Shown: positions 4,654 to 64,000 of the stretch, piece after piece
How the letters are laid out: each line of letters starts with the position of its first letter
Numbering within the stretch: position 1 is the first letter of the stretch
Source of the DNA: a virus
Direction: 5' to 3' (one strand)
DNA length: 64,000 nt
IMG/VR virus record: IMGVR_UViG_3300023199_000051
Span: 96,001-160,000 of that record
Position numbers and translations under genes: made by a program
The notes under the pieces: generated by a model
What the model was told of the DNA's origin: nothing
Databases searched by the model: none
Seen by the model: the letters and a program-made list of their open reading frames with translations, nothing else

Positions 4654-5328
4654 CTACAGAGCGAGCTGACGGCGGTAGCGGGGTCGGACGGCGTACAGGG
4701 GGACCTGGACCATCTGGGGCTCCTGCTGGGCGTCGTCGTACCCGAGCTTGTGCTGGAGGCGTCCGCGACGGCTGCGCAGGCGGGACAGCTTGCGCCCGAT
4801 GCGCTGGATGCGCTGGCGACGGCCGAACAGGCCTGACTCGTCCTCCTCCTCCTCATCGTCGTAGTCCTCGTCGAGGGCGCCGAGCACGACACCCTGGGAG
4901 GTGGCTGCGCTGGCAGCCGGGGCGCTCTCGCCCTTCTCGCCCCACTTGGCGCCCATCTCGTAGCTGTACTCGTGGACCCAGGAGCCCAGGGTACCGAGGG
5001 AGACGTTCACCGCGTGGCTCGACCACTTGGACTTCGGCCACCAGAGACCGGCGACCAGGCCGGCGACACCGGTGACGATCCGCGCGTCGGTCTTGATGAC
5101 GGGGATCTTGAGGTCCTTGCCCTGCGCTGCTCGCCATGCGGACGCACCGGACCAGACGGCGCCGGAGCCGAGCAGCTCGCCTGCGACGACTGCGCTCTCC
5201 TTGGCGGCCTTGGTGCGCGCCTTGGCGACGGTGGACCGCGACCGCGATCGGCCGCTGGACTTGCGCTTGCGCTTGCTCTTGCGCTTGCGAGGGCGAGCCT
5301 TGGATGCAGATGGTGGGGTGATGGCCAT
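4654..5328 (-). CDS. Basic membrane-associated protein, candidate virion protein
   Basis: GGAGGT RBS; N-terminal K/R/S tract; hydrophobic IVTGVAGLVAGLWW; C-terminal DYDDEEEEDESGLFGRR motif. Confidence 0.75.
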   Translation of the reverse strand: MAITPPSASKARPRKRKSKRKRKSSGRSRSRSTVAKARTKAAKESAVVAGELLGSGAVWSGASAWRAAQGKDLKIPVIKTDARIVTGVAGLVAGLWWPKSKWSSHAVNVSLGTLGSWVHEYSYEMGAKWGEKGESAPAASAATSQGVVLGALDEDYDDEEEEDESGLFGRRQRIQRIGRKLSRLRSRRGRLQHKLGYDDAQQEPQMVQVPLYAVRPRYRRQLAL

Positions 5329-38489: not shown

Positions 38490-41400
38490 GTGAGCGTGCT
38501 CGGTGATGTCAGTCCCGCCGTCCCCTCCTCCCTACCTCTCGACCAACGCGACCCAGCCGTAGGGGCAACCGACCCCCGCGAGCTGGGTTGCCGCTGTGAT
38601 GAGTGCTACCTCGGGCGTCAGTTTGCAGCGCTGGGGCACGATGCTCCTGTACTCCCCGAGGTGCACAAGCATGATGCCGAAGTGGCCATCATCGCCGAGG
38701 CTCCGGGTGCGCAGGAGGAACGACGCAAGCGCCCCCTCATCGGACCATCGGGTCGCGAGTTGATGCGCGGGCTGTCGAAGTTCGGTATCGAGCGGCAGGA
38801 CGTCGTTCTAGACAATGGTCTGATGTGCTTACACGGAGACTCGAAAGTTCTCCTTGGGGATGGCACTGCTCGGCCCATCCGACAGCTTGTCGCCGAGAGG
38901 TACGACGGCGAGGTGATGTCTGTCGACTCAGAGGGGCAGCTGGTTCGCCGCCGGATCATCGGGTGGTACCGCAACAAGCGTGCTGGCCGTCGCCTCTTCA
39001 AGGTGTCGTCTAGACGGGCCAAAGGGGTCCGTGTTGGTGTAGTAGGGCCCATCGTCACAGAGGATCATGAGATCCGCGCAGTGGACGGCAAAGATGGCGG
39101 CGTGCGGTGGATCCCAGCGGCTGAGATTGCCATGCGTCCTGATCGCTACTCGGTCTTCACGCGCGATCCCCGACCGAAAAGTGGCTCGGCAGCAGCGGAT
39201 GTCGTTGCTGGAAGCCTCCTTGGCGATGGCACTATCTCCAAAGGCAAGCGCTGCATGCAGATCGGCCACGGGGCTGATCAGGAGGAGTGGCTTCGCCTCA
39301 AGCAGCGCGCGCTTGGTGATCTGGCCCAAGACAGGATCACGCGCGTCTCGGCGGACAAGCTCAGCGGCACCCAGGATGCCCTGTACTTGCGCACAGTGCC
39401 AAGCCGGTACTTTGCTGGCTTGCGGCATGATCACTACAACGAAGACAGCACACGCCGAATCCCCGAGCATTTTTCTCTCACCGCCCGTGCACTGGCAGTC
39501 TGGTATCTGGATGATGGGCACCTCCGACTCCGGCAGGGTAGGCGCCCCCGAATCTCCATCAACCAGACAAAGCTGCAAGGGCCTGATCTAGCGCGGTTGT
39601 TGCGTGCGTTAAAGCAGCGCCTCGGGCTGCGAGCTACTACAAGCTCCAAGGGGCGCATCTCCTTTGATGCCGCGAACACCCAGCGGCTGCTGGGGCTCAT
39701 TGCCGGGATGGTACCGCCGTGCTTGGAGTACAAGACACTCCCCAAGCTGCGAGGACTGTTCAACCCAGACTACTGGCAGCCTTCCACTGCAGTGTCGGTG
39801 GCAGATGATCCCATCATCGAGGAGGTTGAACGTCGCGGCACGTCGGTCTTCTGTGTCGACGTCGAGGAGACGCACAACTTCGTGACTACTGACGTGGTGG
39901 TACACAACTGCAGACCTCCCGACAACAAGCTCAAGCGCGTCATGCACGCACACGGCAAGATCAAGAAGGCCGCAGAGGCGAAGGCCAAGGAGCAGCGGCA
40001 AGAGAACAAGAAGCGCCGCAAGCTCGGAATGCCTCAGCTGCCCATTGAGCCGGTTCCGCCCTCCCCTATCGAGTGCTGCCGCCCCCACATCTTGCAGCGC
40101 GCGCAGCATACCCCGAACATCATCGCGCTGGGCGCGACGAGCTTCTACTCGATCACTGGAGAGCAGAAGGCCATTCGCAAGCTACGGGGGGCCTTCGTCG
40201 ATCGGTGGCTTGTCGAGGACAAACACGGCAACCTCGACGTGTGGAAGCCTCCTTCCAGCCTCCCGCAAGACGGGATCGCTGCCGCTACCCCAGAGGGCGC
40301 ACAGCACCTCCGCATCGTCCCCACGCTCCATCCAGCCTACGTGCTGCGCTCACCTGCGTGGCGTGAAGCCTTCCAGCAGGACATCGGCCGCTTTGTGCGG
40401 TGGATGAAGGGGGAGCTGGAGTGGAAGGAGCCATGGCTTGTCGTCAAGCCCAACTACCAACAGCTCAAGGATTGGCTGTACAGCGCCGATGTGTCTTGGC
40501 ACGCGACAGATGCCGAGACAGATCCGGTCGGCCGCCCAATGATCGGCAAGGACGGCAGGCAGCACGGGCCGGCACCTATCGTGCCTCAGATGCGGTGCCT
40601 GTGCTTCTCCTCTCCAGAAGGGAGCATGGTGGTCCCCTTCCGGTCCATCCGCTTCGTCGAGAACGAAGCGGGGGTGTCGACAGGGCACTACCGATGGCTC
40701 GGGCGACGGGGAGACGAGCAGTTCACCTTCTACCCCCAGGCCGAGGCCCAGGCCATCTGGGAGCTGATCCGGCACTGGCTCATGGACCCGAGCCGGTTGA
40801 AGGTAGGCCACAACAGCCGGTACTTCGACGCCGCCGTCTACGTCAACGAGTTTGACCTGCCCGGACCGCCCGCCAACCACATCGACACCATCATCATGTT
40901 TCGGGCTTACAACTCAGAGATCACGCGCGACCTGTACACGCTCGGGACAATGATGACCGATGTGCCCTCCTGGAAGGGAGGCGACAGCGGCAGTGTTGCC
41001 CTCAACACCAGGTCCGACATGGACCTGTGGGAATACAACGGCGTCGACGGAGCGGTCACCGCTCGGTGCGCGAAGAAGCTGCTACCGCATGTTCACCGCC
41101 GGCAGCAGCAATCCGTCGTCGAGATGGACTTCCAGGTACAGGAGATCGCGCGCGGCATGAAGCGCCTGGGCATGTACGTCGACGAGGACAAGCGGAAGGA
41201 GCTGGAAGCAGGCCTGCAAGGCCAGAAGCGAGCGCACCGTGGCCGCATCAAGGACATCGTTGGCTCCAGCGACTTCAACCCCAACAGCTTTCCACAGGTC
41301 GGCCGCCTGCTCTACGAGGACTGGAAGCTGCCTATACTCGGTGTGTCCGAGGACACGGGGGAGCCGTCAACCGATGACGACACGCTGCGAGCCCTCATCC

Positions 41401-43451
41401 ACGCCAAGGTACTCGATGAACAGCAGGAGGAGATGGTTCTAGAACTGCGGCGGCTCCGCAAGGTGAGCAAGGAGCTGTCCACCTACGTCACGAAGCTGCG
41501 CCCCTGGAACGACTACCGCAAGAACAGCAAAGGCAAGCTCGTCGGTGGTCTGGTGGGCCCGGACGGCCGGGTGCATCCCGACTACAATGTACACACACCC
41601 TCAACTGGCCGATTGTCCAGTTCAAACCCTAATTGCTTTGATGCGGAAACGGAGATCCTGACCAGCAAGGGATGGGTACGCTTCGACCAACTGCTTGAAG
41701 AGCACCGGAAGGGGGAGGCCCATCAGGTAGCTCAGTGGAGCCTAGACGACGAGCAGATCAGCTTCGTAGCACCCGAGGCGTACCACGAGCATGACTATGA
41801 CGGTGACATGGTGCAGCTGCAGCACCAGTCCGCCGACCTGTTGATGACCGGCAACCACCGAATACCCTTGCGAAACAGGAAAACGGGCAAGGTGAAAACG
41901 GTACATGCGATTGACATACCTCGCCCCAAGCGGTCCCCGTCCGACTGGCAGACGGTGCACGCGGGCCACTATGCAGGCGGGAAGGGCCTTGACCTGACTG
42001 AAGATGAAGTGCGCTTCCTTGTTGCGGTGCAAGCTGATGCCCACATCAGGAAGGATGGATACGGCCTGGACTTCGGGTTCTCTAAACCACGGAAGATCAA
42101 TCGCATACGGAGTCTGCTCCGCATGCTGGGCTACAACTTTTCGGAGTACCCAGGGGAAGACCGGACACGCTTCTACGTCCCGCTGTGCTATCGGCTAGAG
42201 CGGCTACTGAAGTGGCTTGGCCCCAAGAAGACCTTTGGCCCGTGGGTTCTCGACTTGTCCCGCGGCCAGTTGGACGTCATGCTTGAGGAGGCCTGGTTCT
42301 GGGATGGCTGCTACACGCGTAAGAGCCAGTTTGCCAGCTCGATCAAAGGAAACGCCGACTGGGTGCAGACCGCTATCGCCCTCTCTGGAGTTCGGGCCAA
42401 TCAACGAGTGTACCTCGGGAGCGTCAGCCCCAGCTACCAGGTAGATGTAAAACGGAGGAAGTACAACGCCATCACGCACAAGGCAGTCGTAGAGACCAGC
42501 CACTACACCGGCAAGGTCTACTGCGTCACCGTTCCGAGCAGCTACATCGTTGTTCGGCGCCAGGGCAAGATCACCATTACCGGCCAGTCACAAAACTTTC
42601 CGAAGCATCTTCGGTCTATGATCATCCCGGCTCCAGGGCACTGCTTCGTGGGCGCCGACTACGACCAGATCGAGCTGCGGCTGATCTGTGCTTTGGCGGG
42701 GGTCGAGAGCTACCTGGCTACCTTCCGCGGGGGTGGCGATCCGCACGCGGTGACCGCGCTGCTCATCTACGGCGACATCTTCAAGGCCGAGCTGCGGAAG
42801 TCCCTGACGCGTGGTGAGTGGGCCTTCTACCAGAAGACGGGGGCGCCACCGAAGGCGCAGGACGAGAACGCTACCGACATGTACGTGTCGCTTCGGAGGT
42901 TCGCCAAGACCTTCGTGTACGCCGTCATCTATGGCGGATCGGCGCAGACTATCTACAACTCGGTGTCTGCGGCTGAGGACGACAATGGCAACCTGCTCTT
43001 CCCTGACATGAAGCTGGGTGAGGTCAAGGCGTCGTACCGCTCCTGGATGCGCAACGCGAAGGAGATTCCCGCCTACTGGGACACGCTGACCACCTTCGCC
43101 AACAAGCACAAGTACCTCGTGGAGCCCATCGGAGGCCGGCGCCGTGACTTCTACAACCCCCGTCACGAGCGCAACGAGATCCTGAACTTCCCCATCCAAG
43201 GGGGTGCCGGCATCATCATGGGCCGGGGCCTCATCAAGCTCGTTGATGTGATGCCCTTCGACTTCGCGGGCGAGTTTACGGGCGTGGTCAATCAGTGTCA
43301 CGACGCGGTGACCTGTGAAGCACCGGATCGGGACCGCGACATCCGACTCGCCCGAGAGCGCATCCAGGAGAGCCTGGAGTGTGAGCATGGCGGCATGCAC
43401 TACACGGCCGAGGCGAGCAAGGCTGTCTACACCTGGAAGGAGGCTGCATGA
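38490..43451 (+). CDS. Family-A DNA polymerase with an N-terminal family-4 uracil-DNA-glycosylase-like domain, a 3'-5' exonuclease and two inteins
   Basis: UDG: AEAPGAQE, IGPSG, HPAYVLR. Exonuclease: DAETD, GHNSRYFD, YNGVD. Polymerase motifs A GADYDQIELR, B KTFVYAVIYG, C CHDA. Confidence 0.95.
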   Translation: MSVLGDVSPAVPSSLPLDQRDPAVGATDPRELGCRCDECYLGRQFAALGHDAPVLPEVHKHDAEVAIIAEAPGAQEERRKRPLIGPSGRELMRGLSKFGIERQDVVLDNGLMCLHGDSKVLLGDGTARPIRQLVAERYDGEVMSVDSEGQLVRRRIIGWYRNKRAGRRLFKVSSRRAKGVRVGVVGPIVTEDHEIRAVDGKDGGVRWIPAAEIAMRPDRYSVFTRDPRPKSGSAAADVVAGSLLGDGTISKGKRCMQIGHGADQEEWLRLKQRALGDLAQDRITRVSADKLSGTQDALYLRTVPSRYFAGLRHDHYNEDSTRRIPEHFSLTARALAVWYLDDGHLRLRQGRRPRISINQTKLQGPDLARLLRALKQRLGLRATTSSKGRISFDAANTQRLLGLIAGMVPPCLEYKTLPKLRGLFNPDYWQPSTAVSVADDPIIEEVERRGTSVFCVDVEETHNFVTTDVVVHNCRPPDNKLKRVMHAHGKIKKAAEAKAKEQRQENKKRRKLGMPQLPIEPVPPSPIECCRPHILQRAQHTPNIIALGATSFYSITGEQKAIRKLRGAFVDRWLVEDKHGNLDVWKPPSSLPQDGIAAATPEGAQHLRIVPTLHPAYVLRSPAWREAFQQDIGRFVRWMKGELEWKEPWLVVKPNYQQLKDWLYSADVSWHATDAETDPVGRPMIGKDGRQHGPAPIVPQMRCLCFSSPEGSMVVPFRSIRFVENEAGVSTGHYRWLGRRGDEQFTFYPQAEAQAIWELIRHWLMDPSRLKVGHNSRYFDAAVYVNEFDLPGPPANHIDTIIMFRAYNSEITRDLYTLGTMMTDVPSWKGGDSGSVALNTRSDMDLWEYNGVDGAVTARCAKKLLPHVHRRQQQSVVEMDFQVQEIARGMKRLGMYVDEDKRKELEAGLQGQKRAHRGRIKDIVGSSDFNPNSFPQVGRLLYEDWKLPILGVSEDTGEPSTDDDTLRALIHAKVLDEQQEEMVLELRRLRKVSKELSTYVTKLRPWNDYRKNSKGKLVGGLVGPDGRVHPDYNVHTPSTGRLSSSNPNCFDAETEILTSKGWVRFDQLLEEHRKGEAHQVAQWSLDDEQISFVAPEAYHEHDYDGDMVQLQHQSADLLMTGNHRIPLRNRKTGKVKTVHAIDIPRPKRSPSDWQTVHAGHYAGGKGLDLTEDEVRFLVAVQADAHIRKDGYGLDFGFSKPRKINRIRSLLRMLGYNFSEYPGEDRTRFYVPLCYRLERLLKWLGPKKTFGPWVLDLSRGQLDVMLEEAWFWDGCYTRKSQFASSIKGNADWVQTAIALSGVRANQRVYLGSVSPSYQVDVKRRKYNAITHKAVVETSHYTGKVYCVTVPSSYIVVRRQGKITITGQSQNFPKHLRSMIIPAPGHCFVGADYDQIELRLICALAGVESYLATFRGGGDPHAVTALLIYGDIFKAELRKSLTRGEWAFYQKTGAPPKAQDENATDMYVSLRRFAKTFVYAVIYGGSAQTIYNSVSAAEDDNGNLLFPDMKLGEVKASYRSWMRNAKEIPAYWDTLTTFANKHKYLVEPIGGRRRDFYNPRHERNEILNFPIQGGAGIIMGRGLIKLVDVMPFDFAGEFTGVVNQCHDAVTCEAPDRDRDIRLARERIQESLECEHGGMHYTAEASKAVYTWKEAA
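38826..39908 (+). mobile_element. Intein (361 aa) with a LAGLIDADG endonuclease, inserted in the UDG domain
   Basis: CLHGD...VVVHN followed by Cys; GSLLGDG and AVWYLDDG motifs. Confidence 0.9.
41634..42587 (+). mobile_element. Intein (318 aa) ending in Gly-Gln, inserted in the polymerase SSxNPNxQN motif
   Basis: CFDAET...VYCVTVPS..IVVRRQGKITITGQ followed by Ser. Removal restores LSSSNPN-SQNFPK. Confidence 0.9.
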
Positions 43452-54489: not shown

Positions 54490-54733
54490 TTAGAAGTAGG
54501 GTTTCGCTGATGACTAGCGCTGTGTGGTACAGGAGGCTACAATAGGAGCACCTACGAGCGGTCCAGTGCTGCACTACAGCACGGTCACCGCTCGCAGGGA
54601 CCCTTGATCCTTGAAAACCAGCGGGTGTGTTAGCGAAAACGCACTCGTAAGCTGCTGGTGCCAGCAGCCTAAAAGGCACCCGCTCGCACAGCTACCCGGA
54701 GCCCCGCTCTGTGTGCGAATCGTGAGTAGGGAG
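54490..54733 (+). promoter_or_regulatory. Putative CRISPR leader
   Basis: Non-coding stretch adjacent to the four identical repeats; contains a duplicated CCGCTCGCA motif. The degenerate repeat is at the opposite end of the array. Confidence 0.6.
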
Positions 54734-55666
54734 GTCGCAGCGGTCTGCTGACTGCTGCGTGTGTTGGAGCGGCCTGCACAGCCCGCCGTCATCGAGCCCG
54801 TGCACGGTCGCAGCGGTCTGCTGACTGCTGCGTGTGTTGGAGCATCGCAACCGTGTCAAGCTGGTTCGTCGGCATCGGGTCGCAGCGGTCTGCTGACTGC
54901 TGCGTGTGTTGGAGCTGCGTGGCGAGGTGCTCCGCCCAGATGGCGTCTGGTCGCAGCGGTCTGCTGACTGCTGCGTGTGTTGGAGGTAGTCGGAGGAGTC
55001 GATGGCGCCGCGGGGGTGGTCGTCGCAGCGGTCTGCTGACTGCTGCGTGTGTTGAAGGCGACTGGAGCTGCGCACCTTGTGCCGGGCAACGCGAGGTCGC
55101 AGCGGTTTGCTGACTGCTTCGTGTGTTGAAGGGTCATCGGCACCCGGCGCACGATCGGGATGCCACTTCGTCGCAGCGGTCTGCTGACTGCTGCGTGTGT
55201 TGGAGGGTCATGGTGGTCTCCGCTAGCATCGCGGAGGACCTCGGGCGCAGCGGTCCGAGGGCTGCTGCGTGTGTTGGAGCGCGGAAGTACCGGGCTTCGA
55301 CCTGGGCGTCTGTTGCCTCCGGCGCAGCGGTCTGCTGACTGCTGCGTGTGTTGGAGAGAGGCGTGTGTTGGAGGTGGGATGGGTGGTCATCGGATACCAT
55401 ATTCATGCTCGTCGCAGCGGTCTGCTGACTGCTGCGTGTGTTGGAGGCCCATCCGGGAGGTCATCGACGACCTCGCCGAGCAGGTCGCAGTGGTTGAGAG
55501 GCCGCTGCGTGTGTTGGAGGATCAGGAAGAAGGCCAACTGGAAGGGGCGCCACTCGGGGCCGCAGCGGTCTGTTGACTGCTGCGTGTGTTGGAGCCCGTT
55601 TCCGCCCTTCAGAAACACTGTGCCGGCGGGGTCGCAGCGGTCTGCTGACTGCTGCGTGTGTTGAAG
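54734..55666 (+). CRISPR. CRISPR array: 13 x 36-bp repeats (consensus GTCGCAGCGGTCTGCTGACTGCTGCGTGTGTTGGAG), type I-C-like
   Basis: Repeats start at 54734, 54807, 54879, 54950, 55022, 55096, 55170, 55244, 55321, 55411, 55484, 55559 and 55631. Spacers are unique and 35-41 bp, except one 54-bp interval containing a repeat fragment. 8-bp stem GCAGCGGT/ACTGCTGC. A degenerate half-repeat lies at 55707-55718. Confidence 0.97.
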
Positions 55667-55826
55667 CCACGACGAGCCGGGCGTGTATATCGGGGAGCTG
55701 CGTCGGGGCGTAGCGGTCGGAACTCCATTGCACGAAAAGGCAGTTTATGCCTGCAATATGAAGAATTGTGTGCGGTTTGTGCCACGGCAGGCTACATTAG
55801 GGGTGTCACCAACGAGGAAGACGTCA

Positions 55827-56420
55827 ATGCTCCCCACCACGGATAGCACCGAACACCACCATTTGGAGTGTCTGATACTGAGGTCAACCTCAAAGCTGCG
55901 GCGTGTTCGAGAAGCACGCGGGTACTCCCAGGTCGCACTCGCCCAACGCACTGGGGTCAGCCAGCCAGACATCTCTGCCCTGGAGCGTGAAGCGCTGTCT
56001 CCGACTGGAACAAATGGCACCTGGCGCTGCCAGGTCTACGACCTGGCAGACGTGTTGGGGGTGCTCCCGGGGGAGTTGTTCCCCAGAGCAGACGCACCCT
56101 GCACGGTCCCACTTGATCATGCCGCTAGCGTGGCTCACCCCGCTGACCTGGAAGCCCTCATTGAGGTCCACGAGGACATCCAGCTTCTCATTGTCGCCAT
56201 GGAGCAGTTGCCAGCACAGGGCCGTCGCGCTCTGGCTCTGCGCTATGGAATCGGCGGCCACGAAGAGCACAGCCTCGCTGCAGTCGGCCGGAAGCTGACG
56301 CCGCCTGTGGGCGCGGAACGTGCCCGTCAAATTGTGCGCACGGCCTACTTCCAACTCCGTGAGTGTGGCCCTATCCCCGCTGCCTACCCTTCCCTCATGT
56401 ACACCCCCCGGAGCTTCTGA
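55827..56420 (+). CDS. XRE-HTH plus sigma70 region-4-like fusion regulator
   Basis: LRRVREARGYSQVALAQRTGVSQPDISALE; LPAQGRRALALRYGI...SLAAVGRKL...AERARQI. Start reassigned to ATG 55827. Confidence 0.8.
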   Translation: MLPTTDSTEHHHLECLILRSTSKLRRVREARGYSQVALAQRTGVSQPDISALEREALSPTGTNGTWRCQVYDLADVLGVLPGELFPRADAPCTVPLDHAASVAHPADLEALIEVHEDIQLLIVAMEQLPAQGRRALALRYGIGGHEEHSLAAVGRKLTPPVGAERARQIVRTAYFQLRECGPIPAAYPSLMYTPRSF

Positions 56421-57988
56421 TGAAATGGTTCGACATCGACAAAGAGGGCATGCGCAAGGTGCTTGCCCGTCGCAGCATCGCCCACGCGCTGCTGGAGCTG
56501 GTACAGAACGCGCTCGACGAGCCCGGCACGACGAGCGTGAAGGTGCGGATCAGCCCGGTGCCCCGCAAGCCCTTCGCCTGGGTCGAGGTGTCCGATGACG
56601 CGCCGGAGGGCTTCAAGCGCCTGTCCGACGCCTGGACGCTGTTCGCCGAGAGCTGGAAGAAGGGGGACGCGACCAAGCGCGGCCGGTTCAACATCGGTGA
56701 GAAGCTGGTCCTCGCCATGGCCCGCGAAGCGGCCATCACGACGACGACGGGGACCGTCCTCTTCGAGGAGGCTGGGCGCCGCCGCACCCGCGCTTCGACC
56801 GAGAAGGGCTCCCTGGTCTGGGTGCTGCTCCGCATGACCCGCGCTGATGTGGCTGAGGCGGAAGCTGTGCTTCACCGCGTCCTGGTCCCGGATGGGATCA
56901 CCTTGACGGTGGCCGTCACTGGGGAGGGACCGGGCGACGATCTATCCACCGTGGTCGAGCCGTCGGAGCCCCTGGCCGTCTCCACCGTCTCGCTGCCCAC
57001 CGAGATCGCCGACGATGGGGGCTACCTGCGCCCCACCGCCCGCAAGACCACAGTCGCCATTCACGAGCCTGCCGACGACTCTGGCGCCTGGCTGTATGAG
57101 ATGGGGATCCCCGTCGTCCAGCTCGACACGCCCTGGTCGGTCGACGTTCAGCAGCGCATCCCGCTCAACCTCGACCGGGACAACGTCACGCCGGCCTACG
57201 CCCGGAAGGTGCACGCCGCGGTGCTCAACACCATGCGGGAAGAGCTGAGTCGCTCCGAGGAGCACCGAGGCTTCAGTGCTTGCGAGCCCTGGGTTCGGGA
57301 GGCATCTGGCGCTCCAGAATGTGACGACGACGCATTCAAAGCGGTCCTCGACGCACGCTTCGGCGAAGACCGGGTCATGGCCGACCCCTCCGACCGCGAG
57401 GCTGGTATGAACGCCGTCAGTCACGGATACAAGCTGGTGTACGGCAACCAGCTCAACGCCGGGAAGCGCAGGAAGCTCCGCGAGCTGCGTGCCAAGGGCG
57501 ACGACCCCCTCGTCCCGGCCGGGCGTACCCGCTTCAAGAGCCCCAAGCCCTACAGCGACGATCCCGACGCGCCCCAGGTCAAGGTCATCCCCGAGTACGA
57601 CTGGACCGACCGGCAGCACGAGGTAGTCGCCTACGCCAAGCATGTCGCGGCCGAGCTGGGCGTCACGCTCCAGCTCACCGTGCGCATCGTCCACACCACC
57701 AACGGCTTCGCAGCCTGCTACAGCCCTGGACAGCTCGACCTCGGACAGCTCGACCTCAACCTCTTCCGCCTGGGCCACGACTGGTTCAAGGGCACGGGTC
57801 CGGGTGCCCTGGAGCGCGTCAACGATCTGTTCATCCACGAGTTCGGTCACCACTACGAGGACAACCACCTGTCCAGCGACTACCACGACGCCTTGACCCG
57901 CCTGGGGGCAGCTCTGACCCGCGCCGCCTTGGAGCGGCGGCTGCGCCCTGGCGACTTCGGCTACAAGCTGTCTGGGGGTGCGCAATGA
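56420..57988 (+). CDS. GHKL (Hsp90/MORC-like) ATPase with a C-terminal HExxH motif
   Basis: LLELVQNALD (N-box), VSDDAPEG, KRGRFNIGEK and FIHEFGHH; TGATG coupling. Confidence 0.8.
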   Translation: MKWFDIDKEGMRKVLARRSIAHALLELVQNALDEPGTTSVKVRISPVPRKPFAWVEVSDDAPEGFKRLSDAWTLFAESWKKGDATKRGRFNIGEKLVLAMAREAAITTTTGTVLFEEAGRRRTRASTEKGSLVWVLLRMTRADVAEAEAVLHRVLVPDGITLTVAVTGEGPGDDLSTVVEPSEPLAVSTVSLPTEIADDGGYLRPTARKTTVAIHEPADDSGAWLYEMGIPVVQLDTPWSVDVQQRIPLNLDRDNVTPAYARKVHAAVLNTMREELSRSEEHRGFSACEPWVREASGAPECDDDAFKAVLDARFGEDRVMADPSDREAGMNAVSHGYKLVYGNQLNAGKRRKLRELRAKGDDPLVPAGRTRFKSPKPYSDDPDAPQVKVIPEYDWTDRQHEVVAYAKHVAAELGVTLQLTVRIVHTTNGFAACYSPGQLDLGQLDLNLFRLGHDWFKGTGPGALERVNDLFIHEFGHHYEDNHLSSDYHDALTRLGAALTRAALERRLRPGDFGYKLSGGAQ

Positions 57989-58689
57989 GCAACCCCCTCG
58001 ACAACATCGACGACGCCACACTGGCAGCTGCAGTGCGGGAGGCGCTGTACGTCGAAGCCTGCCACGTCACAGGAACGCACAATCCACGGCACACACCCCT
58101 GTACATCTGCGTGGAACAGAAGAGGGCGATGGTCGGCCGGTTGCTGCGGGAGCTGAAGCTGAGTGCCTACGACCTTCCCCGAAAGGGGGACTACTGGACA
58201 CGGCGGTACCAGGAGCAGGCCAAGAGCGGCGACCAGAAAGCGTTGCTTACCTGGGGCATGGAGGAGGCATGGCTGGACTACTGGGCGCCTGCTGACGTGC
58301 TACGGGGCCTGGACCATGGACCCTGGGACTACGGAGAACGGGAGCGGCTGGCGCGCCGCCTGCGTAAGGAGCTGACCATCGAGATCCCCCTCTCGACGTC
58401 GGCTGGCAGGAAGGCTGGCAAGTACCACGGGCCCTTGGTCGGCATCGAGATGGTGGCACATGGGCTCCTCATCACGCCCCGGCCGAACCTGTACTCGGTG
58501 AGCACTTTCCGGTACTGGCTCCTGGTGAGGCTGACTGGTGGCGTGCGCCTGGTCACGGTCGACGGCAGCTACCACAAGGCCGACACCGAAGCGCCTACCA
58601 GCACTCCCCTCTCCGGGGCCAAAGAGATTGCATCGTGCATCAAAGAGTGCGTCGAAGCACTGAAACCGGCAGATACCTCCACGTCGTAG
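57985..58689 (+). CDS. Hypothetical protein
   Basis: ATGA overlap; 234 aa. Confidence 0.65.
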   Translation: MSNPLDNIDDATLAAAVREALYVEACHVTGTHNPRHTPLYICVEQKRAMVGRLLRELKLSAYDLPRKGDYWTRRYQEQAKSGDQKALLTWGMEEAWLDYWAPADVLRGLDHGPWDYGERERLARRLRKELTIEIPLSTSAGRKAGKYHGPLVGIEMVAHGLLITPRPNLYSVSTFRYWLLVRLTGGVRLVTVDGSYHKADTEAPTSTPLSGAKEIASCIKECVEALKPADTSTS

Positions 58690-58742
58690 CCTCTCGTGCT
58701 ACATTCCTGATACACCCTCACTGTTGACATCCCGGAGTAGGC

Positions 58743-58898
58743 ATGTCTGAGTCCACACACCGCGAGACTGACCGCGAACGCGAGGCGCGACTGCGCCGGT
58801 ATGCCTTCGTCGCCACCGTGCTGCTTGCGCCCTTCTGGGTGCCGGCTGGCATCGCTGCAGGGCTCATGGATAGCTGCTGCCAGCGGGGGGCGCAATGA
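58743..58898 (+). CDS. Small membrane peptide (51 aa)
   Basis: MSESTHRE...YAFVATVLLAPFWVPAGIAAGLM; GGAG upstream; its stop overlaps the next ATG. Confidence 0.5.
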   Translation: MSESTHRETDREREARLRRYAFVATVLLAPFWVPAGIAAGLMDSCCQRGAQ

Positions 58899-59404
58899 CT
58901 GAAGCTGCCATCCGTGCCGAGTTCGAGCGCCTGTGCACCCTGGATGTCTTCGGAGGCGTCTTCGACGAACGGCTGCCCGCGCTCCACCTTGAGCAGCACA
59001 GCGACGTCCGGCGCTGCAAGGGCGAAGCCGATCTCGATGACTGGCTCGTCGTCGTGCACCTCTGGGAGGGGCAGAGCTGGGGTGAGACACGCGAGACGAT
59101 GCTGCACGAGCTGGTGCATCTGTCGGGGCCAGCCTGCTGGCGCGGCCACTACGCACCCTTCAAGCGCAAGCTGCTCGCAGCTGCACTGGAAGCCTGGGGC
59201 TTGCAGGGCAGCCTGCTCGGGTGGACGCCGTGCCAGCCGTACCGCCAGCTCGACCACCATCTCGTCGACGCCCTGGACCACCCATGGAGGACAGCTGTGA
59301 AGAGGGCTGTCGCTGAAGCGGTGGAACACCTGCGACTGCTGCTGTCCGTGAGGGCGGTCGGAGCGGCTGGCTGCACCGGGCTGCGGGGGGCCGGTGATGA
59401 ATGA
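58895..59404 (+). CDS. SprT-like zinc metalloprotease domain protein
   Basis: RETMLHELVHL...HYAPFK. Confidence 0.7.
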   Translation: MTEAAIRAEFERLCTLDVFGGVFDERLPALHLEQHSDVRRCKGEADLDDWLVVVHLWEGQSWGETRETMLHELVHLSGPACWRGHYAPFKRKLLAAALEAWGLQGSLLGWTPCQPYRQLDHHLVDALDHPWRTAVKRAVAEAVEHLRLLLSVRAVGAAGCTGLRGAGDE

Positions 59405-59654
59405 CCGCCTGCCTTGTGGCCACCACACTGCGTGTGTCGTCTCCACCGACGAGGGCACGCACTATTGCGGGCGGTGCGAGGAGGTTGCTCGCCTCCTCGA
59501 CGACACCGAGCGGCTGCAGGCCGAGATTGACCGCCTGCAAGCCAACGCCACCGCCCGCGAAGGGTTGCTGCGCCGCCGGACTGATGCACTACGTGAGGCC
59601 GAGCGGGAGCGGGCTGCCTTGCGGTCGCGGTCGGAGGAGGACCCCGATGCGTGA
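59397..59654 (+). CDS. Small Zn-finger/coiled-coil protein
   Basis: LPCGHHTAC...YCGRC followed by a heptad-like tail. Confidence 0.55.
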   Translation: MNDRLPCGHHTACVVSTDEGTHYCGRCEEVARLLDDTERLQAEIDRLQANATAREGLLRRRTDALREAERERAALRSRSEEDPDA

Positions 59655-59792
59655 TCCGCACTGGCATGCCGTCGGACAGGTAGGAATCTTTCGAGGATAG
59701 GTGACGCAGGTACCTTTGAGAGGGTATGTAGTATGTGTCACATTAGACTACACCGCACACACTGAACACCCAGCACCGAGGACTCAACAGCA

Positions 59793-60596
59793 ATGGATAC
59801 TGCGACCCACCGAAGAGGTGCGGACCGTGACCAGCACGTCACGCTCCGCCTCTGGGGACTGGAAGCGCTGTGGACGCCGGCGCACGTCCGGGCCAACCCC
59901 TACAGCTACCCGGTTCCGACCTACAGCGCGTTGAAGGGCGTCCTTCGCGCCATCTACTGGAAGCCGCCCTTCGAGTACGAGCCCTTGTGGGTGTCCGTGC
60001 TCAAGCCGATCCGGTACGAGACCCGATCGATGATCGGAGTGGTCAACACCCTGGCACAGGCTGACAAGGACCCTGACGGTAACGGCGGCCGTACTCGCTA
60101 CACGCAGAGCATCCTGTGGGACGTCGACTACGTGGTGCGGGCGCGGCTCGTCAAGAACCCCCACTACCCGCACAAGACGCTGCATGCGTACCACCAGGAG
60201 ATTCTGCGACGGATGCGGCGTGGCGAGCAGTATGGGCCGCTGTACATGGGCAAGTCCGAGTTCGCCGCCAACTACGAGCTGATCGAGGAGGGCGACGAGC
60301 TTCCAGCCCCGCAACCCATCACGATGGACCTGGGGAGCATGCTCTTCGATCAGATCCCCCTACAGCTGGGCAGCTGGCGCAGCCGGAGGAGGTGGCGCAA
60401 GCGGAAGGCTGCAGGCCGCAAGGTCAGCAAGCGGGAGCCCTGGAAGCAGGAGCTGATGCCCGTGTTCCACAAGGCCACGATGCAGGGCGGCGTGGTTCAC
60501 TTCCCGGCCGATCTGATGGACCGCTACCGCGACCAGATCTTCGAGGCGCGGGCCAAGACCCACCAGGACACGAGGGGGGACCATGTTGCTGCTTGA
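59793..60596 (+). CDS. cas5: Type I-C Cas5 (Cas5d-like)
   Basis: SYPVPTYSALKGVLRAIYWKP, LKPIRY and ILWDVDYVVRA...GPLYMG match the Cas5c/Cas5d pattern. Confidence 0.9.
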   Translation: MDTATHRRGADRDQHVTLRLWGLEALWTPAHVRANPYSYPVPTYSALKGVLRAIYWKPPFEYEPLWVSVLKPIRYETRSMIGVVNTLAQADKDPDGNGGRTRYTQSILWDVDYVVRARLVKNPHYPHKTLHAYHQEILRRMRRGEQYGPLYMGKSEFAANYELIEEGDELPAPQPITMDLGSMLFDQIPLQLGSWRSRRRWRKRKAAGRKVSKREPWKQELMPVFHKATMQGGVVHFPADLMDRYRDQIFEARAKTHQDTRGDHVAA

Positions 60597-62526
60597 CAAG
60601 CTGATCGAGCGATCGCGTCATACCCAGGTGCTCCCAGGATACGCCAAGTCCGAGTTCTCTGTTGTGCTGCACGTCGGGAAGGATGGCACCTTCAAGGGCA
60701 TCGAGGTGCTCGATGAGCCTCGCACCGAGATCGTGCCCACCAATCCGGTCAGGACAAGCTCTGTGGTGGCAATGACTGCCATCGACAACGCGCTGTACAC
60801 CCTGGGGGCCGCGCCTCCTGGCCGGTCTGCCGAGTGGGTTGCGAAGCGCCACCAAGCGTACCTCGGCATGCTGAGCAAGATCGACCACCCTGCATGCAGG
60901 CTGATCGAGAAGGCACTGGCGCAGAGCCCAGCCGTGGTGGGGTGGGACAAGCAGGTGCCCACGCAGGCGCAGCTTGCCCAGGTCATGGAAGCTGATGAAG
61001 TACAGCGCACCGGGCCTGGCAAGAAGGCGCTGATCAAGCGTGGAAAACTGACGCCGAACAGCCAGGTGGTGGGCGCGCACAAGTGCGCCATCACCAGCGC
61101 AGCTCGCTACGTAGACGCAGCCTCTGTGCTGCATGTGTCGGGCCTCAGCGACAAGTCGATGATCCTGATTGACGTCGAGGGCCACGAGCAGTGGTGGTGC
61201 GATCCCGCTGTGGACGCGGTGCACACCAGGCGTCGGCTGGAGGCCAACAACCGAGAGGGGACACCCCGCATGTGGCCGTGCTCCCTGTGCGGGGAGACGC
61301 GCACCATCACCCGGCTGTTCCGCTCCAGCCACGTCCTGAGCGGTGGCCTCATCAGCTTCAACGGAGCTGCGTGGAGTGGCTACAACCGCAAGCAGGGCCG
61401 CTGTGCACCTACGTGCATGGAGTGTGCAGAGCGCATCGGCATCGGCCTCGACGCCATCCTGCGCACCCCAGGCACGCTCAAGTGGCTGGGTGGGGAGGAG
61501 GACTATCGGCTTGTGTGGTGGGCTGACGATCCCGGCAAGCCGGGCCCGTGGCCTGCGCTCAGCAAGGCGCTCGACATGGAGACGCCCGACGAGGATGCGG
61601 AGGAGCTGCTCAGTCAGATCACAGCCGGCCAGCTCATCAGCCTCACTCAGCAGGAGAAGCGTCTGTCGCTACGGCGTCACGTCCAGGTGGACCCCGAGGT
61701 GGTGCGGGAACGTGTCATGCGGTGGCGGCGCGTCCACCGCCGCTTCCTGGGGGAAGACCGGCAAGCATGGCCCGTGAGCACCGCTCATGCGTTGCGCTTC
61801 GATGGAGCCACGAGGCAGGCGAAGCTGTCGAACCGGAACCCCGGACTCCTGCGGCGCCAGGAGATGATCTACCTGTACCTCCTCGGCGGACAGCCGTTCT
61901 GCCGACGAGAGACCAACTGGGCGCAAGCACTGTTGGACAGGCAGCACCCCGACGACCACCAGAAGACAACCAACCTGCGCCGGGCGGCGTTTCTGACGTT
62001 CGCCGGTGCTCCCTACCAGCAGGAGAAAGACATGGAGTTCGCAGTGACTGCGTACGACGACAAGGGACGTCCGATCAGGACGTGCCGAGCCCCGGAGGAA
62101 AGCAACCTCGACCTGGCCGAGCTGGCCGTGTTCTACCTCGGACGCGCCCTCGCTCGGGCAGCCGACAACCAGACCAGTGGGGGTCGCTCCGTCCAGACGC
62201 GCGTCGACAGCACCTACAGCAACCTCGTGAAGCGGCGCCCCGGCGACGTCTACAGGATCATCAAGTCCAGCTACAGCCAGTACGAGTTCTTCAACGAGAA
62301 GACGCAGCGCCGGACGAAGGTCGACGACAAGGTGATGGAGGTACTGCTGAGCCGGACGGTGGAGTTCCAGCCGCTCAACGGCCTCCCTGCCCCCATGGAT
62401 CCCCGCCAGTGCGTCATCTTCGACAAGGGCTACTACTTCCAGCGCTTCCTCCGGGATGCATACATGGAGGTGTGTGCGCAGGAGGCTGCCGAGGAGGAGG
62501 CTGCCGAGGAGGTGGCTGCCAAGTAG
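60583..62526 (+). CDS. cas8c: Type I-C large subunit Cas8c (divergent)
   Basis: Lies between cas5 and cas7; RTSSVVAMTAIDNALYTLG; CSLCG/CMEC Zn motifs; LISFN; C-terminal YLGR and GYYFQ. Confidence 0.8.
   Translation: MLLLDKLIERSRHTQVLPGYAKSEFSVVLHVGKDGTFKGIEVLDEPRTEIVPTNPVRTSSVVAMTAIDNALYTLGAAPPGRSAEWVAKRHQAYLGMLSKIDHPACRLIEKALAQSPAVVGWDKQVPTQAQLAQVMEADEVQRTGPGKKALIKRGKLTPNSQVVGAHKCAITSAARYVDAASVLHVSGLSDKSMILIDVEGHEQWWCDPAVDAVHTRRRLEANNREGTPRMWPCSLCGETRTITRLFRSSHVLSGGLISFNGAAWSGYNRKQGRCAPTCMECAERIGIGLDAILRTPGTLKWLGGEEDYRLVWWADDPGKPGPWPALSKALDMETPDEDAEELLSQITAGQLISLTQQEKRLSLRRHVQVDPEVVRERVMRWRRVHRRFLGEDRQAWPVSTAHALRFDGATRQAKLSNRNPGLLRRQEMIYLYLLGGQPFCRRETNWAQALLDRQHPDDHQKTTNLRRAAFLTFAGAPYQQEKDMEFAVTAYDDKGRPIRTCRAPEESNLDLAELAVFYLGRALARAADNQTSGGRSVQTRVDSTYSNLVKRRPGDVYRIIKSSYSQYEFFNEKTQRRTKVDDKVMEVLLSRTVEFQPLNGLPAPMDPRQCVIFDKGYYFQRFLRDAYMEVCAQEAAEEEAAEEVAAK
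62032..62526 (+). CDS. cas11: Hidden small subunit Cas11 from an internal in-frame start in cas8c
   Basis: AGGAG RBS 6 nt before the in-frame ATG 62032; the 164-aa product carries FYLGR and FDKGYYFQR. Confidence 0.65.
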   Translation: MEFAVTAYDDKGRPIRTCRAPEESNLDLAELAVFYLGRALARAADNQTSGGRSVQTRVDSTYSNLVKRRPGDVYRIIKSSYSQYEFFNEKTQRRTKVDDKVMEVLLSRTVEFQPLNGLPAPMDPRQCVIFDKGYYFQRFLRDAYMEVCAQEAAEEEAAEEVAAK

Positions 62527-62538
62527 GCGTTCCTCCAC

Positions 62539-62591
62539 ACTCAACACCCTTCGACTCAACACCCTTCGACTCAACACCCTTCGACTCAACA
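62539..62591 (+). repeat. 15-bp tandem repeat ACTCAACACCCTTCG x3.5 between cas8c and cas7
   Basis: Units start at 62539, 62554 and 62569, with a partial unit at 62584. Confidence 0.9.
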
Positions 62592-62608
62592 ACCACGAGG
62601 ACTGAACC

Positions 62609-63532
62609 ATGACCACCCCCCACACCCCCACCACCTTCGACCCCGACTATGGGCTCCCCTGCGACCCCAGGCAGAGCATGACCATGGTCGTGCTGCTGAG
62701 CTGCTACCACGGCATCCTCAACATGCGCCCAGACGGCTCTGGAGAGCCCCGCATGGACCCTGACGGGCACAGCACCGCGACCGGCGAGTGCATCAAGCGC
62801 ATCTGGCGCGACGGCGTGAAGATCGCAGGCGGCCTCGACCTCCTCTACGAGCGCGACTGCGACATCGGGGACCGCACGTCCCCCTACGTCATCAAGAAGG
62901 GCAAGGAGGCGGGCAAGCTCGACCTCGAACGGATGTGCGCGGACTTCTGGGATGCTCCCCTGGGCACCCCGGCCACGGCGGCGAAGAAGCAGGCCGCGCT
63001 CCGCAGCGCACTGACCGTGCAGCTCTCGCGCAGCGTCGACGAGGTGCTCCCCGACCTGGAGCACTTCGCTGGGACCATCGGCAACACCAAGGAGCGGGAC
63101 GGCGCAGGTGACAGCAAGGAGAGCTACCTCTCTCGCGCCTTCAACACGCGCTTCCGCGTGCCCTTCGCCACCTACGTCACGCCCGTGATCTACCACCCGA
63201 TGCTCGGCGCGAAGTACGGGATCACGCCTCAGTGGTTCCAGTCGCTGTACACCGGCATGATTGACGGTCCCGAACACATCCTGTCCACCCAGCGGTCGGA
63301 CCTCCGCGTGGAGGGGGTGTACGTCTTCACCACGTCGAAGATGCGGGGCGGCGAGCGCAAGTGCGACACCGTCAGCCGCGTGAAGATCGCGTGCAAGGAG
63401 GGCGTCATCGGAGGGCGTGCCAAGCGCTTCAGCGACTACGAGATCACCGTCGACGACGACATGCCCCCCTGGATGCAGCTCTACAGCTACGTGCCCGCCC
63501 TGCAGCGCAGCGAGCAGGCCGCCGCCAAGTAG
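62609..63532 (+). CDS. cas7: Type I-C backbone Cas7 (Csd2-like, divergent)
   Basis: ILNMRPDGSGEPRMD...TGECIKRIWRD parallels the Csd2 NPNGDP..PR.D..TDVCLKRK.R motif; RVPFATY; RFSDYEI. Confidence 0.85.
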   Translation: MTTPHTPTTFDPDYGLPCDPRQSMTMVVLLSCYHGILNMRPDGSGEPRMDPDGHSTATGECIKRIWRDGVKIAGGLDLLYERDCDIGDRTSPYVIKKGKEAGKLDLERMCADFWDAPLGTPATAAKKQAALRSALTVQLSRSVDEVLPDLEHFAGTIGNTKERDGAGDSKESYLSRAFNTRFRVPFATYVTPVIYHPMLGAKYGITPQWFQSLYTGMIDGPEHILSTQRSDLRVEGVYVFTTSKMRGGERKCDTVSRVKIACKEGVIGGRAKRFSDYEITVDDDMPPWMQLYSYVPALQRSEQAAAK

Positions 63533-63561
63533 AACGCGCCCACACACACAAGGAGACCCCC

Positions 63562-64000
63562 ATGAAGTACAAGCCCCTCAGAGCGTGCCAACAGAGCGCG
63601 CTGGATTCCATGATGCCTCTCGACTGGCGCACCTTCGTCCTCGCCGCTCCAACCGGCAGCGGTAAGTCGTGGGTGATCGCGGGCCTCGCGTACCTCAACC
63701 TCAGGTGGCAGGGGAGACGTCCTGCCTGCTGGGGTGACGCCTCCGAGGTCAAGAAGGTCATCGTGGCCACTCCGATGCAGCACATCGAGAGCGGCTACGT
63801 AGACGAGGCGTGCTTCCATTACTCCGCGGAGGGGGTCCGCACGCCGCTGCGCGTCAAGGTGGCCGAGGACTTCTGGCTGCGCGTCCGGGAGATGAAGGGT
63901 GCGGCCGGGGACAACCTGCGCAAGCTCGTGTCCGGCGAGAAGGGCACGGGTGGGCGGGCCATCCTCACGTCACACCAGCTCCTTGTGAGCGTCTACAAGG
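63562..64000 (+). CDS. SF2 helicase, partial; possible Cas3' with no N-terminal HD domain
   Basis: Not in the ORF track because there is no stop in the window. AGGAG RBS; MKYKPLRACQQSAL...LAAPTGSGKS...VIVATP...ILTSHQLL; open to the edge. Confidence 0.7.
   Translation, partial: MKYKPLRACQQSALDSMMPLDWRTFVLAAPTGSGKSWVIAGLAYLNLRWQGRRPACWGDASEVKKVIVATPMQHIESGYVDEACFHYSAEGVRTPLRVKVAEDFWLRVREMKGAAGDNLRKLVSGEKGTGGRAILTSHQLLVSVYK

Follow-up and report, generated by a model that had tools for sequence, protein, structure and literature searches.

A Cas3-less, helicase-associated type I-C-like CRISPR-Cas locus in a 178-kb phage-like virus genome

The phage-like IMG/VR virus record IMGVR_UViG_3300023199_000051 (178 kb) carries a four-gene module, cas5c-cas8c-cas7-helicase, which is flanked by two CRISPR arrays with duplicated leaders (Table 1). 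We consider it probable that this module mediates helicase-coupled, nuclease-free RNA-guided interference. The window comprises 64,000 nucleotides (positions 96,001 to 160,000 of the record), and 18 kb past its edge were inspected directly. An initial annotation of the window had described a 13-repeat array and cas5-cas8c-cas7, and had interpreted them as a divergent type I-C Cascade on a mobile element. Array (54734-55667) and genes (59793-63532) proved to be real, with all three gene products above the Pfam gathering scores, and the interpretation is supported, the mobile element being one that IMG/VR classifies as a virus. The distance between the end of array 1 and the start of cas5, previously given as 4 kb, was measured as 4125 nt.

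The record counts as viral by its IMG/VR and CheckV class, by 22 clustered tRNA genes, and by weak matches to tail-fibre domains; no capsid or terminase gene was recognised in it. As proposed earlier, the locus is embedded among phage-type replication genes, namely PolA with an intein, UvrD-like and Dda-like helicases, and a methylase. The flanks are not ordinary chromosome, an origin that had been named as a possible refutation. CheckV gives a completeness of 100%, and this value rests on 126-bp terminal repeats. Because the terminal overlap falls within a pentapeptide-repeat gene with internal duplications, a missing piece of the genome is not fully excluded.

Table 1. Features of the CRISPR-Cas locus in window coordinates; positions beyond 64000 are window equivalents, with L001 coordinates in brackets
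Feature	Position	Strand	Remarks
Promoter-like motif GGCTACAATA	54535..54544	+	Some 200 nt before array 1; putative function, from sequence
Leader of array 1	54555..54733	+	Duplicated before array 2 at equal distances
CRISPR array 1	54734..55667	+	13 repeats, 12 spacers, 72-90 nt spacing; repeats degenerate toward 3' end
HTH (Xre-type) and sigma-70 region 4 protein	55683..56420	+	Pfam HTH_31, Sigma70_r4; real start probably after 55683
GHKL-type ATPase (541 aa) and overlapping 234-aa protein	56363..58689	+	HATPase_c 26.7 bits; cargo
cas5c	59793..60596	+	Predicted pre-crRNA endonuclease subunit; PF09704 52.7 bits (gathering 23); PADLOC Cas5c 1.9e-32
cas8c (647 aa)	60583..62526	+	Overlaps cas5 end by 14 nt; PF09709 60.1 bits (gathering 27), residues 16-355 only; PADLOC 1.9e-19
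Candidate internal Cas11-like product (164 aa)	62032..62526	+	In-frame ATG at Cas8c residue 484; AGGAGA 6 nt upstream
Tandem 15-nt repeat ACTCAACACCCTTCG	62539..62594	+	3.7 copies; cas8c-cas7 gap
cas7	62609..63532	+	Csd2-like backbone subunit; PF05107 69.4 bits (gathering 33.2); PADLOC 1e-13
SF2 DExH helicase (773 aa)	63562..65883 (L001:1562-3883)	+	Window holds N-terminus only (to 64000)
CRISPR array 2	66073-67314 (L001:4073-5314)		17 repeats; downstream of helicase gene, just past window

The assignment of the three Cascade genes is supported by matches to the PADLOC I-C models (Table 1) and to I-C chains in the PDB, i.e., 9w6c, 8dex, and 7kha for Cas5 and 8g9s and 7kha for Cas7. None of the proteins reached its NCBIfam I-C equivalog cut-off (75.6 of 85 bits for Cas5c, 54.7 of 219 for Cas8c, and 44 of 182 for Cas7), and they are therefore divergent. 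Divergence is also high within the group of related loci. Cas5 shares 33-39% identity with the Cas5 proteins of relatives, and Cas8c shares 29-31% over the full length, with a CxxC...CxxC motif that is invariant in four homologues. The predicted Cas8c model (pLDDT 47), built from four sequences, was too poor for a structure search. In type I-C systems, Cas11c is translated internally, and by analogy the in-frame ATG within cas8c may give rise to a Cas11-like product.

Cas1, Cas2, Cas3_HD, Cas4, and Cas6 had no match anywhere in the 178-kb record, which extends to the entire record the earlier observation that adaptation genes are missing from the window. The locus could still be read as canonical type I-C, with cas3 and cas4-cas1-cas2 simply out of view, but the sole point in favour is the caveat raised in the initial annotation. 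As none of these genes was detected in the whole record, this reading is refuted for the record, and its probability is practically nil. Extension of the contig past 64 kb revealed no cas1, cas2, or canonical cas3; the helicase gene and the second array are found there instead. The open reading frame cut by the window edge is the helicase gene of the system, and this fourth gene and the flanking by two arrays had been missed earlier.

The helicase gene starts 29 nt past cas7 on the same strand, has an AAGGAG ribosome-binding site before its ATG, and is followed by array 2. Its product contains a Walker A motif (residues 29-36, with K35) and a DEGHH motif (residues 162-166). Like Cas3, it belongs to the SF2 DExH ATPases and is the product of a type I cas operon. 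Unlike Cas3, it has no HD domain, its C-terminal domain is unrelated, and it scored 10.4 bits against cas3_core (cut-off 102), the only cas3_core match in the record. The best matches of the helicase family profile were XPBII (5.7e-18), Rad25, RadD, and HsdR, and the best 60 PDB matches of this profile included no Cas3 chain. Foldseek and VIA returned generic SF2 translocases, and weak PADLOC matches were obtained with PbeA, DpdF, and Cas3-like models. In an alignment of 36 family members, the helicase motifs were invariant. The C-terminal 310 residues contained no conserved His or Asp, G757 and W758 being the sole conserved positions. This C-terminal domain is helical and family-specific. A C-terminal RGWRG motif is conserved. 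No recognisable nuclease domain was found in the protein, which is negative evidence, and the protein atlas offers no informative relative of the C-terminal domain. Judged from its sequence, the helicase is an XPB/RadD/HsdR-like translocase without conserved nuclease residues and not a degenerate Cas3.

The helicase family comprises 25 representatives at E<1e-30, with a mutual identity of about 30%. In all six contigs with enough flanking sequence, a family member adjoins cas5-cas8c-cas7, at protein identities of 25-39% and with differing flanking genes. This pattern bears on the possibility that the helicase is a mere neighbouring gene of phage DNA metabolism and that the RNA-guided roadblock is formed by Cascade alone. 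Such a reading would suit a locus surrounded by replication and repair helicases and a protein whose core is a generic SF2 fold. It is nonetheless quite improbable, given that the relatives next to cas5-cas8c-cas7 are full-length and include the family-specific C-terminal domain, and given the position of the gene between cas7 and array 2. The genes between array 1 and cas5, including those for the HTH-sigma protein and the GHKL-type ATPase, are not conserved in related loci and were rejected as parts of the system; PADLOC had no match for the ATPase or the 234-aa protein. Several other searches for relatives were negative: a word-based search with the helicase, Cas7, and the Cas8c profile returned the query alone, IMG/VR scans with Cas7 and with the helicase gave no match, and the helicase had no tblastn match among GenBank phages.

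Interference by the module would be nuclease-free because the translocase has no recognisable nuclease domain. The outcome would be a different one if a nuclease were provided in trans by the host (Cas3 or another enzyme) or by an unrecognised phage protein, in which case targets would be cleaved and degraded as in canonical type I systems. The helicase has kept all ATPase motifs, many nearby phage proteins belong to no known family, and the relative L007 carries an extra gene of 248 aa in the cas7-helicase gap. The latter, however, has no homologue in this phage, the module is not accompanied by any conserved nuclease-like gene in the relatives, and the phage is devoid of a Cas3 HD domain. 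We regard a nuclease in trans as rather unlikely and favour helicase-coupled interference that is nuclease-free.

The two arrays, which together hold 28 spacers, are the only ones in the 178-kb genome. Their leaders share a 69-nt block with 97% identity and a 54-nt block, abutting the first repeat, with 100% identity, and the RNA fold of the array 1 leader has a z-score of -4.2. The promoter-like motif upstream of array 1 corresponds to GGCTACAWTA, which occurs five times in the genome with about 0.25 copies expected by chance. All copies are on the + strand, and four of the five are intergenic according to our own gene call. Further copies are located directly after array 1 (55790) and directly after array 2. 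A sigma-70 consensus scan gave no match at the motif upstream of array 1.

The state of the arrays is relevant to the question of whether the locus has become a decaying relic or serves as a decoy, soaking up, for example, host Cas proteins or crRNAs without targeting of its own. The absence of adaptation genes, the degenerate trailer-end repeats, some with partial-repeat scars, and the failure to find protospacers would all fit a relic. On the other hand, the leader-proximal repeats are identical (nine consecutive ones in array 2), and compensatory changes maintain the repeat hairpin. Moreover, repeated acquisition is indicated by a relative with three variant spacers for a single target, and the four genes are all intact and remain conserved between phages that have diverged deeply. 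A relic or decoy is thus highly improbable.

The most suitable reading of the repeat is 37 nt long, with the 3' end GTTG(G/A)AG(C/G). It consists of a 10-bp hairpin and an 11-nt tail, GTGTGTTGGAG(C), and ends with GTTGGAGC. It conforms to the pattern of type I-C repeats, in which a stem-loop precedes an 11-nt tail that ends about ATTGAAAC. The initial annotation had regarded the 3' end as unusual. It is less so than claimed because the 37-nt reading fits the I-C pattern xTTGxAxC and the repeats of relatives end with GTTGAAAC. Canonical type I-C repeats have a length of about 32 nt, as compared with 36-37 nt here. Within this phage, the hairpin is preserved in 98.8% of cells, mainly through wobble changes, a signal that did not exceed shuffled controls (92 of 500 shuffles). 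An across-family covariation test was therefore needed. Across phages, the hairpin was 95.6% paired, compensatory changes occurred in six of the ten pairs, and the covariation score was matched by none of 500 shuffles. We conclude from these sequence comparisons that the repeat is of ordinary I-C design, with a covarying hairpin and an 11-nt tail.

Homologous repeats form arrays in four of the five contigs examined as DNA (this phage, L007, L015, and L016), and no array was detected in L014. A search with a two-repeat pattern of the repeat 3' end, covering one genome from each of 185,579 species as well as IMG/VR, retrieved no host array with the same repeat. The earlier suggestion that the phage borrows Cas1/2 from its host is thus unsupported.

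Spacer 8 of array 2 encodes PKKRVVVNLAPA and matches comM genes of four genomes at 32-34 of 38 nt, with TT preceding the match in each case. This similarity identifies a bacterial-type comM gene as the origin of the spacer. comM encodes a helicase of recombination and transformation. The divergent ComM-like gene of the phage itself differs at the corresponding site and is not matched by the spacer. If the 37th base of the repeat (C) is PAM-derived, the flank of the comM matches reads TTC, which is compatible with the PAM expected for type I-C. However, this TTC encodes the Phe of a conserved motif, so that the four comM matches do not provide independent evidence for the PAM.

The initial annotation had proposed that host genes or competing elements are targeted, and this one comM-derived spacer lends support to the proposal. 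An exact protospacer was found for no spacer. With both arrays as queries, GenBank phages gave chance-level matches only (E 0.02-1), and PLSDB plasmids gave none. Exact searches were likewise negative for the leader-proximal spacer of each array in IMG/VR and for spacers A2-8 and A2-2 in the JGI metagenomes. None of the spacers matches the genome of the phage itself, and there was no cross-targeting among the related phage loci examined. The metagenome-assembled genome (MAG) that yielded the comM match contains no further spacer match, which leaves an assignment of this MAG as the host unsupported. The hexamer GGTCAT is enriched 23-fold in the spacers of this phage; it occurs in none of the 60 spacers of relatives, and selection of spacers against translation starts was rejected as a family trait.

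In the working model that we favour, a phage promoter of its own would drive array 1, and transcripts reading through from the cas operon would probably cover array 2. Cas5c would cut at the 3' base of each repeat hairpin, leaving an 11-nt 5' handle (GUGUGUUGGAG) on the crRNA, on which Cas5c, Cas8c, possibly with the internally translated Cas11-like piece, and Cas7 would assemble. The resulting Cascade is expected to bind double-stranded DNA beside a TTC-type PAM and to engage the dedicated XPB/RadD/HsdR-like SF2 translocase instead of a Cas3 nuclease-helicase. The targets would include at least one bacterial-type comM gene, and the outcome may be silencing or the displacement of a polymerase or replisome, as in type IV-A systems with CasDinG.

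The comM-derived spacer, together with the divergent ComM-like gene of the phage, provides a concrete hypothesis of a phage silencing a host gene. We tentatively propose, as a possibility that we would not yet call probable, that the nuclease-free Cascade-helicase silences host genes such as comM during infection, with the phage supplying its own, non-matching ComM-like protein and the XPB/RadD-like translocase spreading or enforcing the block. If this proposal is true, the locus would represent a type I counterpart of type IV-A interference that evolved independently in phages.

The system is not a new kind. A Cas3-less, helicase-associated I-C layout in huge phages was published in 2020 (Al-Shayeb 2020, Nature 578:425, PMC7162821, Extended Data Fig. 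9), and this phage I-C variant was named by Benz et al. (2023, bioRxiv 10.1101/2023.06.23.546257), with its layout being likened to non-nucleolytic systems. In the literature searched, we found no functional study of the variant, only the gene layout from two related huge phages, which also carry a CasPhi system (PMC7162821). The present locus has the layout of the variant, with Cascade genes of I-C-like type, an operon that includes a helicase other than Cas3, and neither Cas1 nor Cas2. The likeness of layout extends to a Cas5d-like Cas5, the lack of Cas6, a helicase in the place of Cas3, and a location on phage or, here, phage-like DNA. They differ in that the genome described here measures 178 kb, has the two arrays only, and lacks a methyltransferase-like partner of the helicase, whereas the published pair has CasPhi in addition. 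The locus adds a diverse helicase family that possesses a C-terminal domain of its own, was linked to cas5-cas8c-cas7 in each informative context, and is XPB/RadD/HsdR-like and not a degenerate Cas3. It also shows that such a system can comprise as few as four genes plus arrays.

With canonical I-C systems (D. vulgaris and N. lactamica; PDB 7KHA, 8DEX, and 8G9S), the locus shares Cas5c, Cas8c, and Cas7, the lack of Cas6, and a repeat made of a hairpin and an 11-nt tail with the end xTTGxAxC; the flank next to the relatives of one spacer would be compatible with TTC. It differs by the absence of Cas3, Cas4, Cas1, and Cas2, by two arrays that flank the operon, and by proteins that do not reach the equivalog cut-offs of NCBIfam. 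Type IV-A systems with CasDinG (PMC11519345; Benz et al., 2023) are likewise borne by mobile elements and combine a Cascade-like complex with a helicase, without adaptation genes or a nuclease. The resemblance lies in the mode of working, that is, nuclease-independent silencing, whether acting or thought to act. Type IV-A relies, however, on Csf effectors and DinG, whereas the phage has I-C Cas5c/Cas8c/Cas7 and an XPB/Rad25/RadD/HsdR-like helicase and is not a member of that type. The locus thus offers a compact, testable case for type I having evolved helicase-coupled and probably nuclease-free CRISPR interference independently, in parallel to type IV-A.

The initial annotation had proposed a 13-repeat array accompanied by cas5-cas8c-cas7, and these features were borne out by the repeat finder, Pfam, PADLOC and matches to solved I-C Cascades (see table). 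The three genes are co-oriented and start 4125 nt downstream of array 1, in agreement with the distance of ~4 kb noted at first. The I-C models of PADLOC concurred (Cas5c, 1.9e-32; Cas8c, 1.9e-19; Cas7c, 1e-13), and Cas5 and Cas7 matched subunits of solved I-C Cascades. None of the three proteins reached the stricter NCBIfam I-C cut-offs, and word-based searches among 5.8 billion proteins returned nothing beyond the queries themselves. Thus, the cas genes were fairly described as a divergent I-C set. Six-frame searches of the whole record, each with controls that gave the expected outcome, revealed no match to Cas1, Cas2, Cas4, Cas6 or the Cas3 HD domain. The lack of adaptation genes, originally claimed for the window, extends to the entire record. 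The annotation had also considered that cas1/cas2 or a canonical cas3 might lie just past the window edge; the record contains none, and a non-Cas3 helicase is found there instead.

The open reading frame of this helicase, which is cut by the window edge, is preceded by an AAGGAG ribosome-binding site. The protein starts directly with motif I, motif II reads DEGHH, and the matches to ResIII and Helicase_C are weak. We considered the possibility that the protein is a Cas3 and rejected it: the cas3_core model covered only the P-loop (10.4 bits versus a cut-off of 102), no HD domain was matched, and the PADLOC Cas3 models scored 13-15 bits. When 1.84 billion representatives were searched exhaustively with HMMER, 25 relatives emerged at E<1e-30, most of them 710-790 aa long and ~30% identical over the full length. 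A family profile built from 36 members matched XPBII (5.7e-18), Rad25, RadD and HsdR in the PDB, with no Cas3 chain among the best 60 matches. The AlphaFold model (pLDDT 84) aligned about equally well, at Z ~18-19, with several SF2 translocases of generic type (FANCM, Mfd, INO80, RIG-I-like and RadD). Residues 470-773 are modelled as a helical domain, for which no informative relative was found. In the family alignment, all ATPase motifs are invariant, whereas conservation in the C-terminal domain is limited to G757 and W758, both within an RGWRG motif at its end, and includes no His or Asp. Given the invariant ATPase motifs, the lack of conserved C-terminal His/Asp residues and the non-Cas3 matches, we read the helicase as a putative active motor without a recognisable nuclease.

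In all six contigs with enough flanking DNA, the present record included, cas5-cas8c-cas7 adjoin the helicase. The related loci comprise a cas5-cas8 fusion, cas7 and helicase (49-kb ENA contig); cas5-cas8c-cas7, a 248-aa gene, helicase and array (L007, a 187-kb contig of an NCBI MAG); cas5-cas8c-cas7-helicase (L014); helicase and an array of at least 37 repeats, with the cas genes on the opposite strand (L015); and cas genes, array and helicase (L016). The four proteins share 25-39% identity between loci, and the neighbouring genes differ from locus to locus. This phage lacks a homologue of the 248-aa L007 gene, and none of the genes that separate array 1 from cas5, among them those for the HTH-sigma protein and the GHKL ATPase, recurs in the relatives. 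Judged from gene order, we assign the helicase to the CRISPR system, with four genes and the arrays as its conserved core. The GHKL-type ATPase and a translationally coupled, uncharacterised 234-aa protein had no PADLOC match and are not conserved in the relatives. The core of the tandem repeat between cas8c and cas7, TCAACACCC, is the reverse complement of the repeat tail GGGTGTTGA in the related phage L015.

Positions of features in the phage record and in one relative. Unprefixed positions refer to the window; L001, L002 and L012 are pieces of the phage record, and L015 is a contig of a relative.
Feature	Position	Strand	Details
1653-aa ORF	38490-43451		UDG domain, LAGLIDADG/intein region, family-A DNA polymerase
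Array 1	54734-55667	+	13 direct repeats, spacing 72-90 nt
Spacers of both arrays, 6 with GGTCAT	54770-55630; L001:4109-5277
Partial-repeat scars	55357-55373; L001:4697-4713, 4854-4870, 5238-5250		AGAG, then last 13 nt of repeat
GHKL-type ATPase and partner	56363-58689		ATPase 541 aa, sacsin-like N-terminus; between array 1 and cas genes
cas5c	59793-60596	+	PF09704, 52.7 bits (cut-off 23)
cas8c	60583-62526	+	PF09709, 60.1 bits (cut-off 27), residues 16-355 only
Tandem repeat	62539-62594		15-nt unit ACTCAACACCCTTCG, 3.7 copies
cas7	62609-63532	+	PF05107, 69.4 bits (cut-off 33.2)
Helicase	from 63562 (ATG)		773 aa
Array 2	genome 162073-163314		17 repeats, 189 nt past helicase stop codon
ComM-like gene	L002:17768-19027 (genome 17768-19027)		419 aa, PF13541, 97.9 bits
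tRNA cluster	L012:16299-18970 (genome 76299-78970)	-	22 genes
Pentapeptide-repeat gene	genome 177800-178164 joined to 127-330		spans contig junction, holds 126-bp terminal repeat
Variant spacers of relative	L015:4800-5600	-	three near-identical, core GCCATGAGCACGCGCAGCTGGTCGTC

The repeats of array 2 belong to the same family as those of array 1. A third CRISPR-like array is absent from the record, where the only other periodic repeat is the pentapeptide-repeat gene at the contig junction. Two shared blocks, of 69 nt (97% identity) and 54 nt (100% identity), lie upstream of both arrays at identical distances, and the leader RNA shows strong structure (z = -4.2). Taken as 37 nt long, the repeat starts with GTC, which is followed by a 10-bp stem enclosing a 4-nt loop and then by the tail GTGTGTTGGAG(C); those of the relatives are clearly homologous and end in GTTGAAAC. 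Among variant repeats of this phage, the stem is kept in 98.8% of cells, chiefly via wobble changes, a conservation that does not exceed shuffles. Across phages, the stem sequence varies with 95.6% of cells paired, compensatory changes affect 6 of the 10 pairs, the covariation score was reached by none of 500 shuffles, and slid controls paired to only 23-46%. The repeat conforms to the canonical I-C design, and the unusual 3' end pointed out in the initial annotation proved only weakly true. Over-long spacers of both arrays carry partial-repeat scars, and matching variant repeats are present in both trailer halves, which suggests common ancestry of, or recombination between, the arrays. The three variant spacers of L015 suggest that spacers were acquired repeatedly against variants of a single target, although its flanks show no adaptation genes.

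The promoter-like motif GGCTACAWTA, itself preceded by conserved sequence, occurs five times in the genome, always on the plus strand (0.25 expected by chance), with copies 200 nt upstream of array 1, just past array 1 and just past array 2; a sigma-70 consensus scan gave no match. Since the leader of array 2 starts directly after the helicase stop codon and lacks this motif, array 2 is likely transcribed by read-through from the cas operon.

A spacer search had been proposed, with TTC expected as the PAM. No spacer matched the phage genome itself. Searches of both arrays against GenBank phages and plasmids gave no convincing match, nor did exact searches of the leader-proximal spacers in IMG/VR and of spacers 2 and 8 of array 2 in JGI metagenomes. 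Spacer 8 of array 2 encodes PKKRVVVNLAPA, a ComM signature, and a degenerate pattern allowing for wobble in this sequence picked out one comM gene in the species genomes (estimated chance matches, ~3e-4). In a 401-genome sample of the phylum of the comM-bearing MAG, the three strongest matches and nine more fell on this spacer. Four comM genes match it at 32-34 of 38 nt, each preceded by TT, which together with the C ending the repeat gives TTC. The expected PAM is thus compatible with these near-matches but only hinted at, because TTC is also the Phe codon of a conserved ComM motif. The phage's own ComM/ChlI-domain AAA+ protein reads PRKRIIVSIDADG at the spacer site and lacks the canonical NLAPAD motif, and its gene does not match the spacer there at the nucleotide level. 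This combination has a published parallel in a phage that targets the sigma-70 of its host and itself carries a sigma-70 gene (PMC7162821). A Mg_chelatase-family gene lies close to the CRISPR locus of L015. GGTCAT, the reverse complement of an ATG-ACC start context, is present in 6 of the 28 spacers, always in this orientation (~0.26 expected; P ~3e-7, post hoc); 60 spacers from relatives show no such bias. The reverse complement of spacer 7 of array 1 (A1-7) is a textbook SD-ATG.

The window lies within a single record of 178,164 bp (bases 96001-160000), which is listed in IMG/VR as viral, with direct terminal repeats and a CheckV completeness of 100%; completeness hinges on a 126-bp terminal overlap within the repetitive pentapeptide-repeat gene. 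The reading frame of this gene continues across the contig junction. It contains internal duplications of ~195 nt, and the related ENA contig likewise has a pentapeptide-repeat gene near its helicase. In the whole record, no terminase, portal or major capsid protein was recognised with Pfam, PHROGs or the protein atlas. The record is certainly a mobile element; because no capsid or terminase was recognised, we grade it only as a probable virus.

In the published phage systems, Cas5 is Cas5d-like and Cas6 is lacking (Al-Shayeb et al., PMC7162821). The literature searched held no functional study of the Cas3-less, helicase-associated kind, and the locus belongs to this already known, uncharacterised kind of system. 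We infer its pre-crRNA processing, PAM, helicase recruitment and nuclease-free outcome. In its working, the locus probably resembles type IV-A with CasDinG, of which it is not a member.
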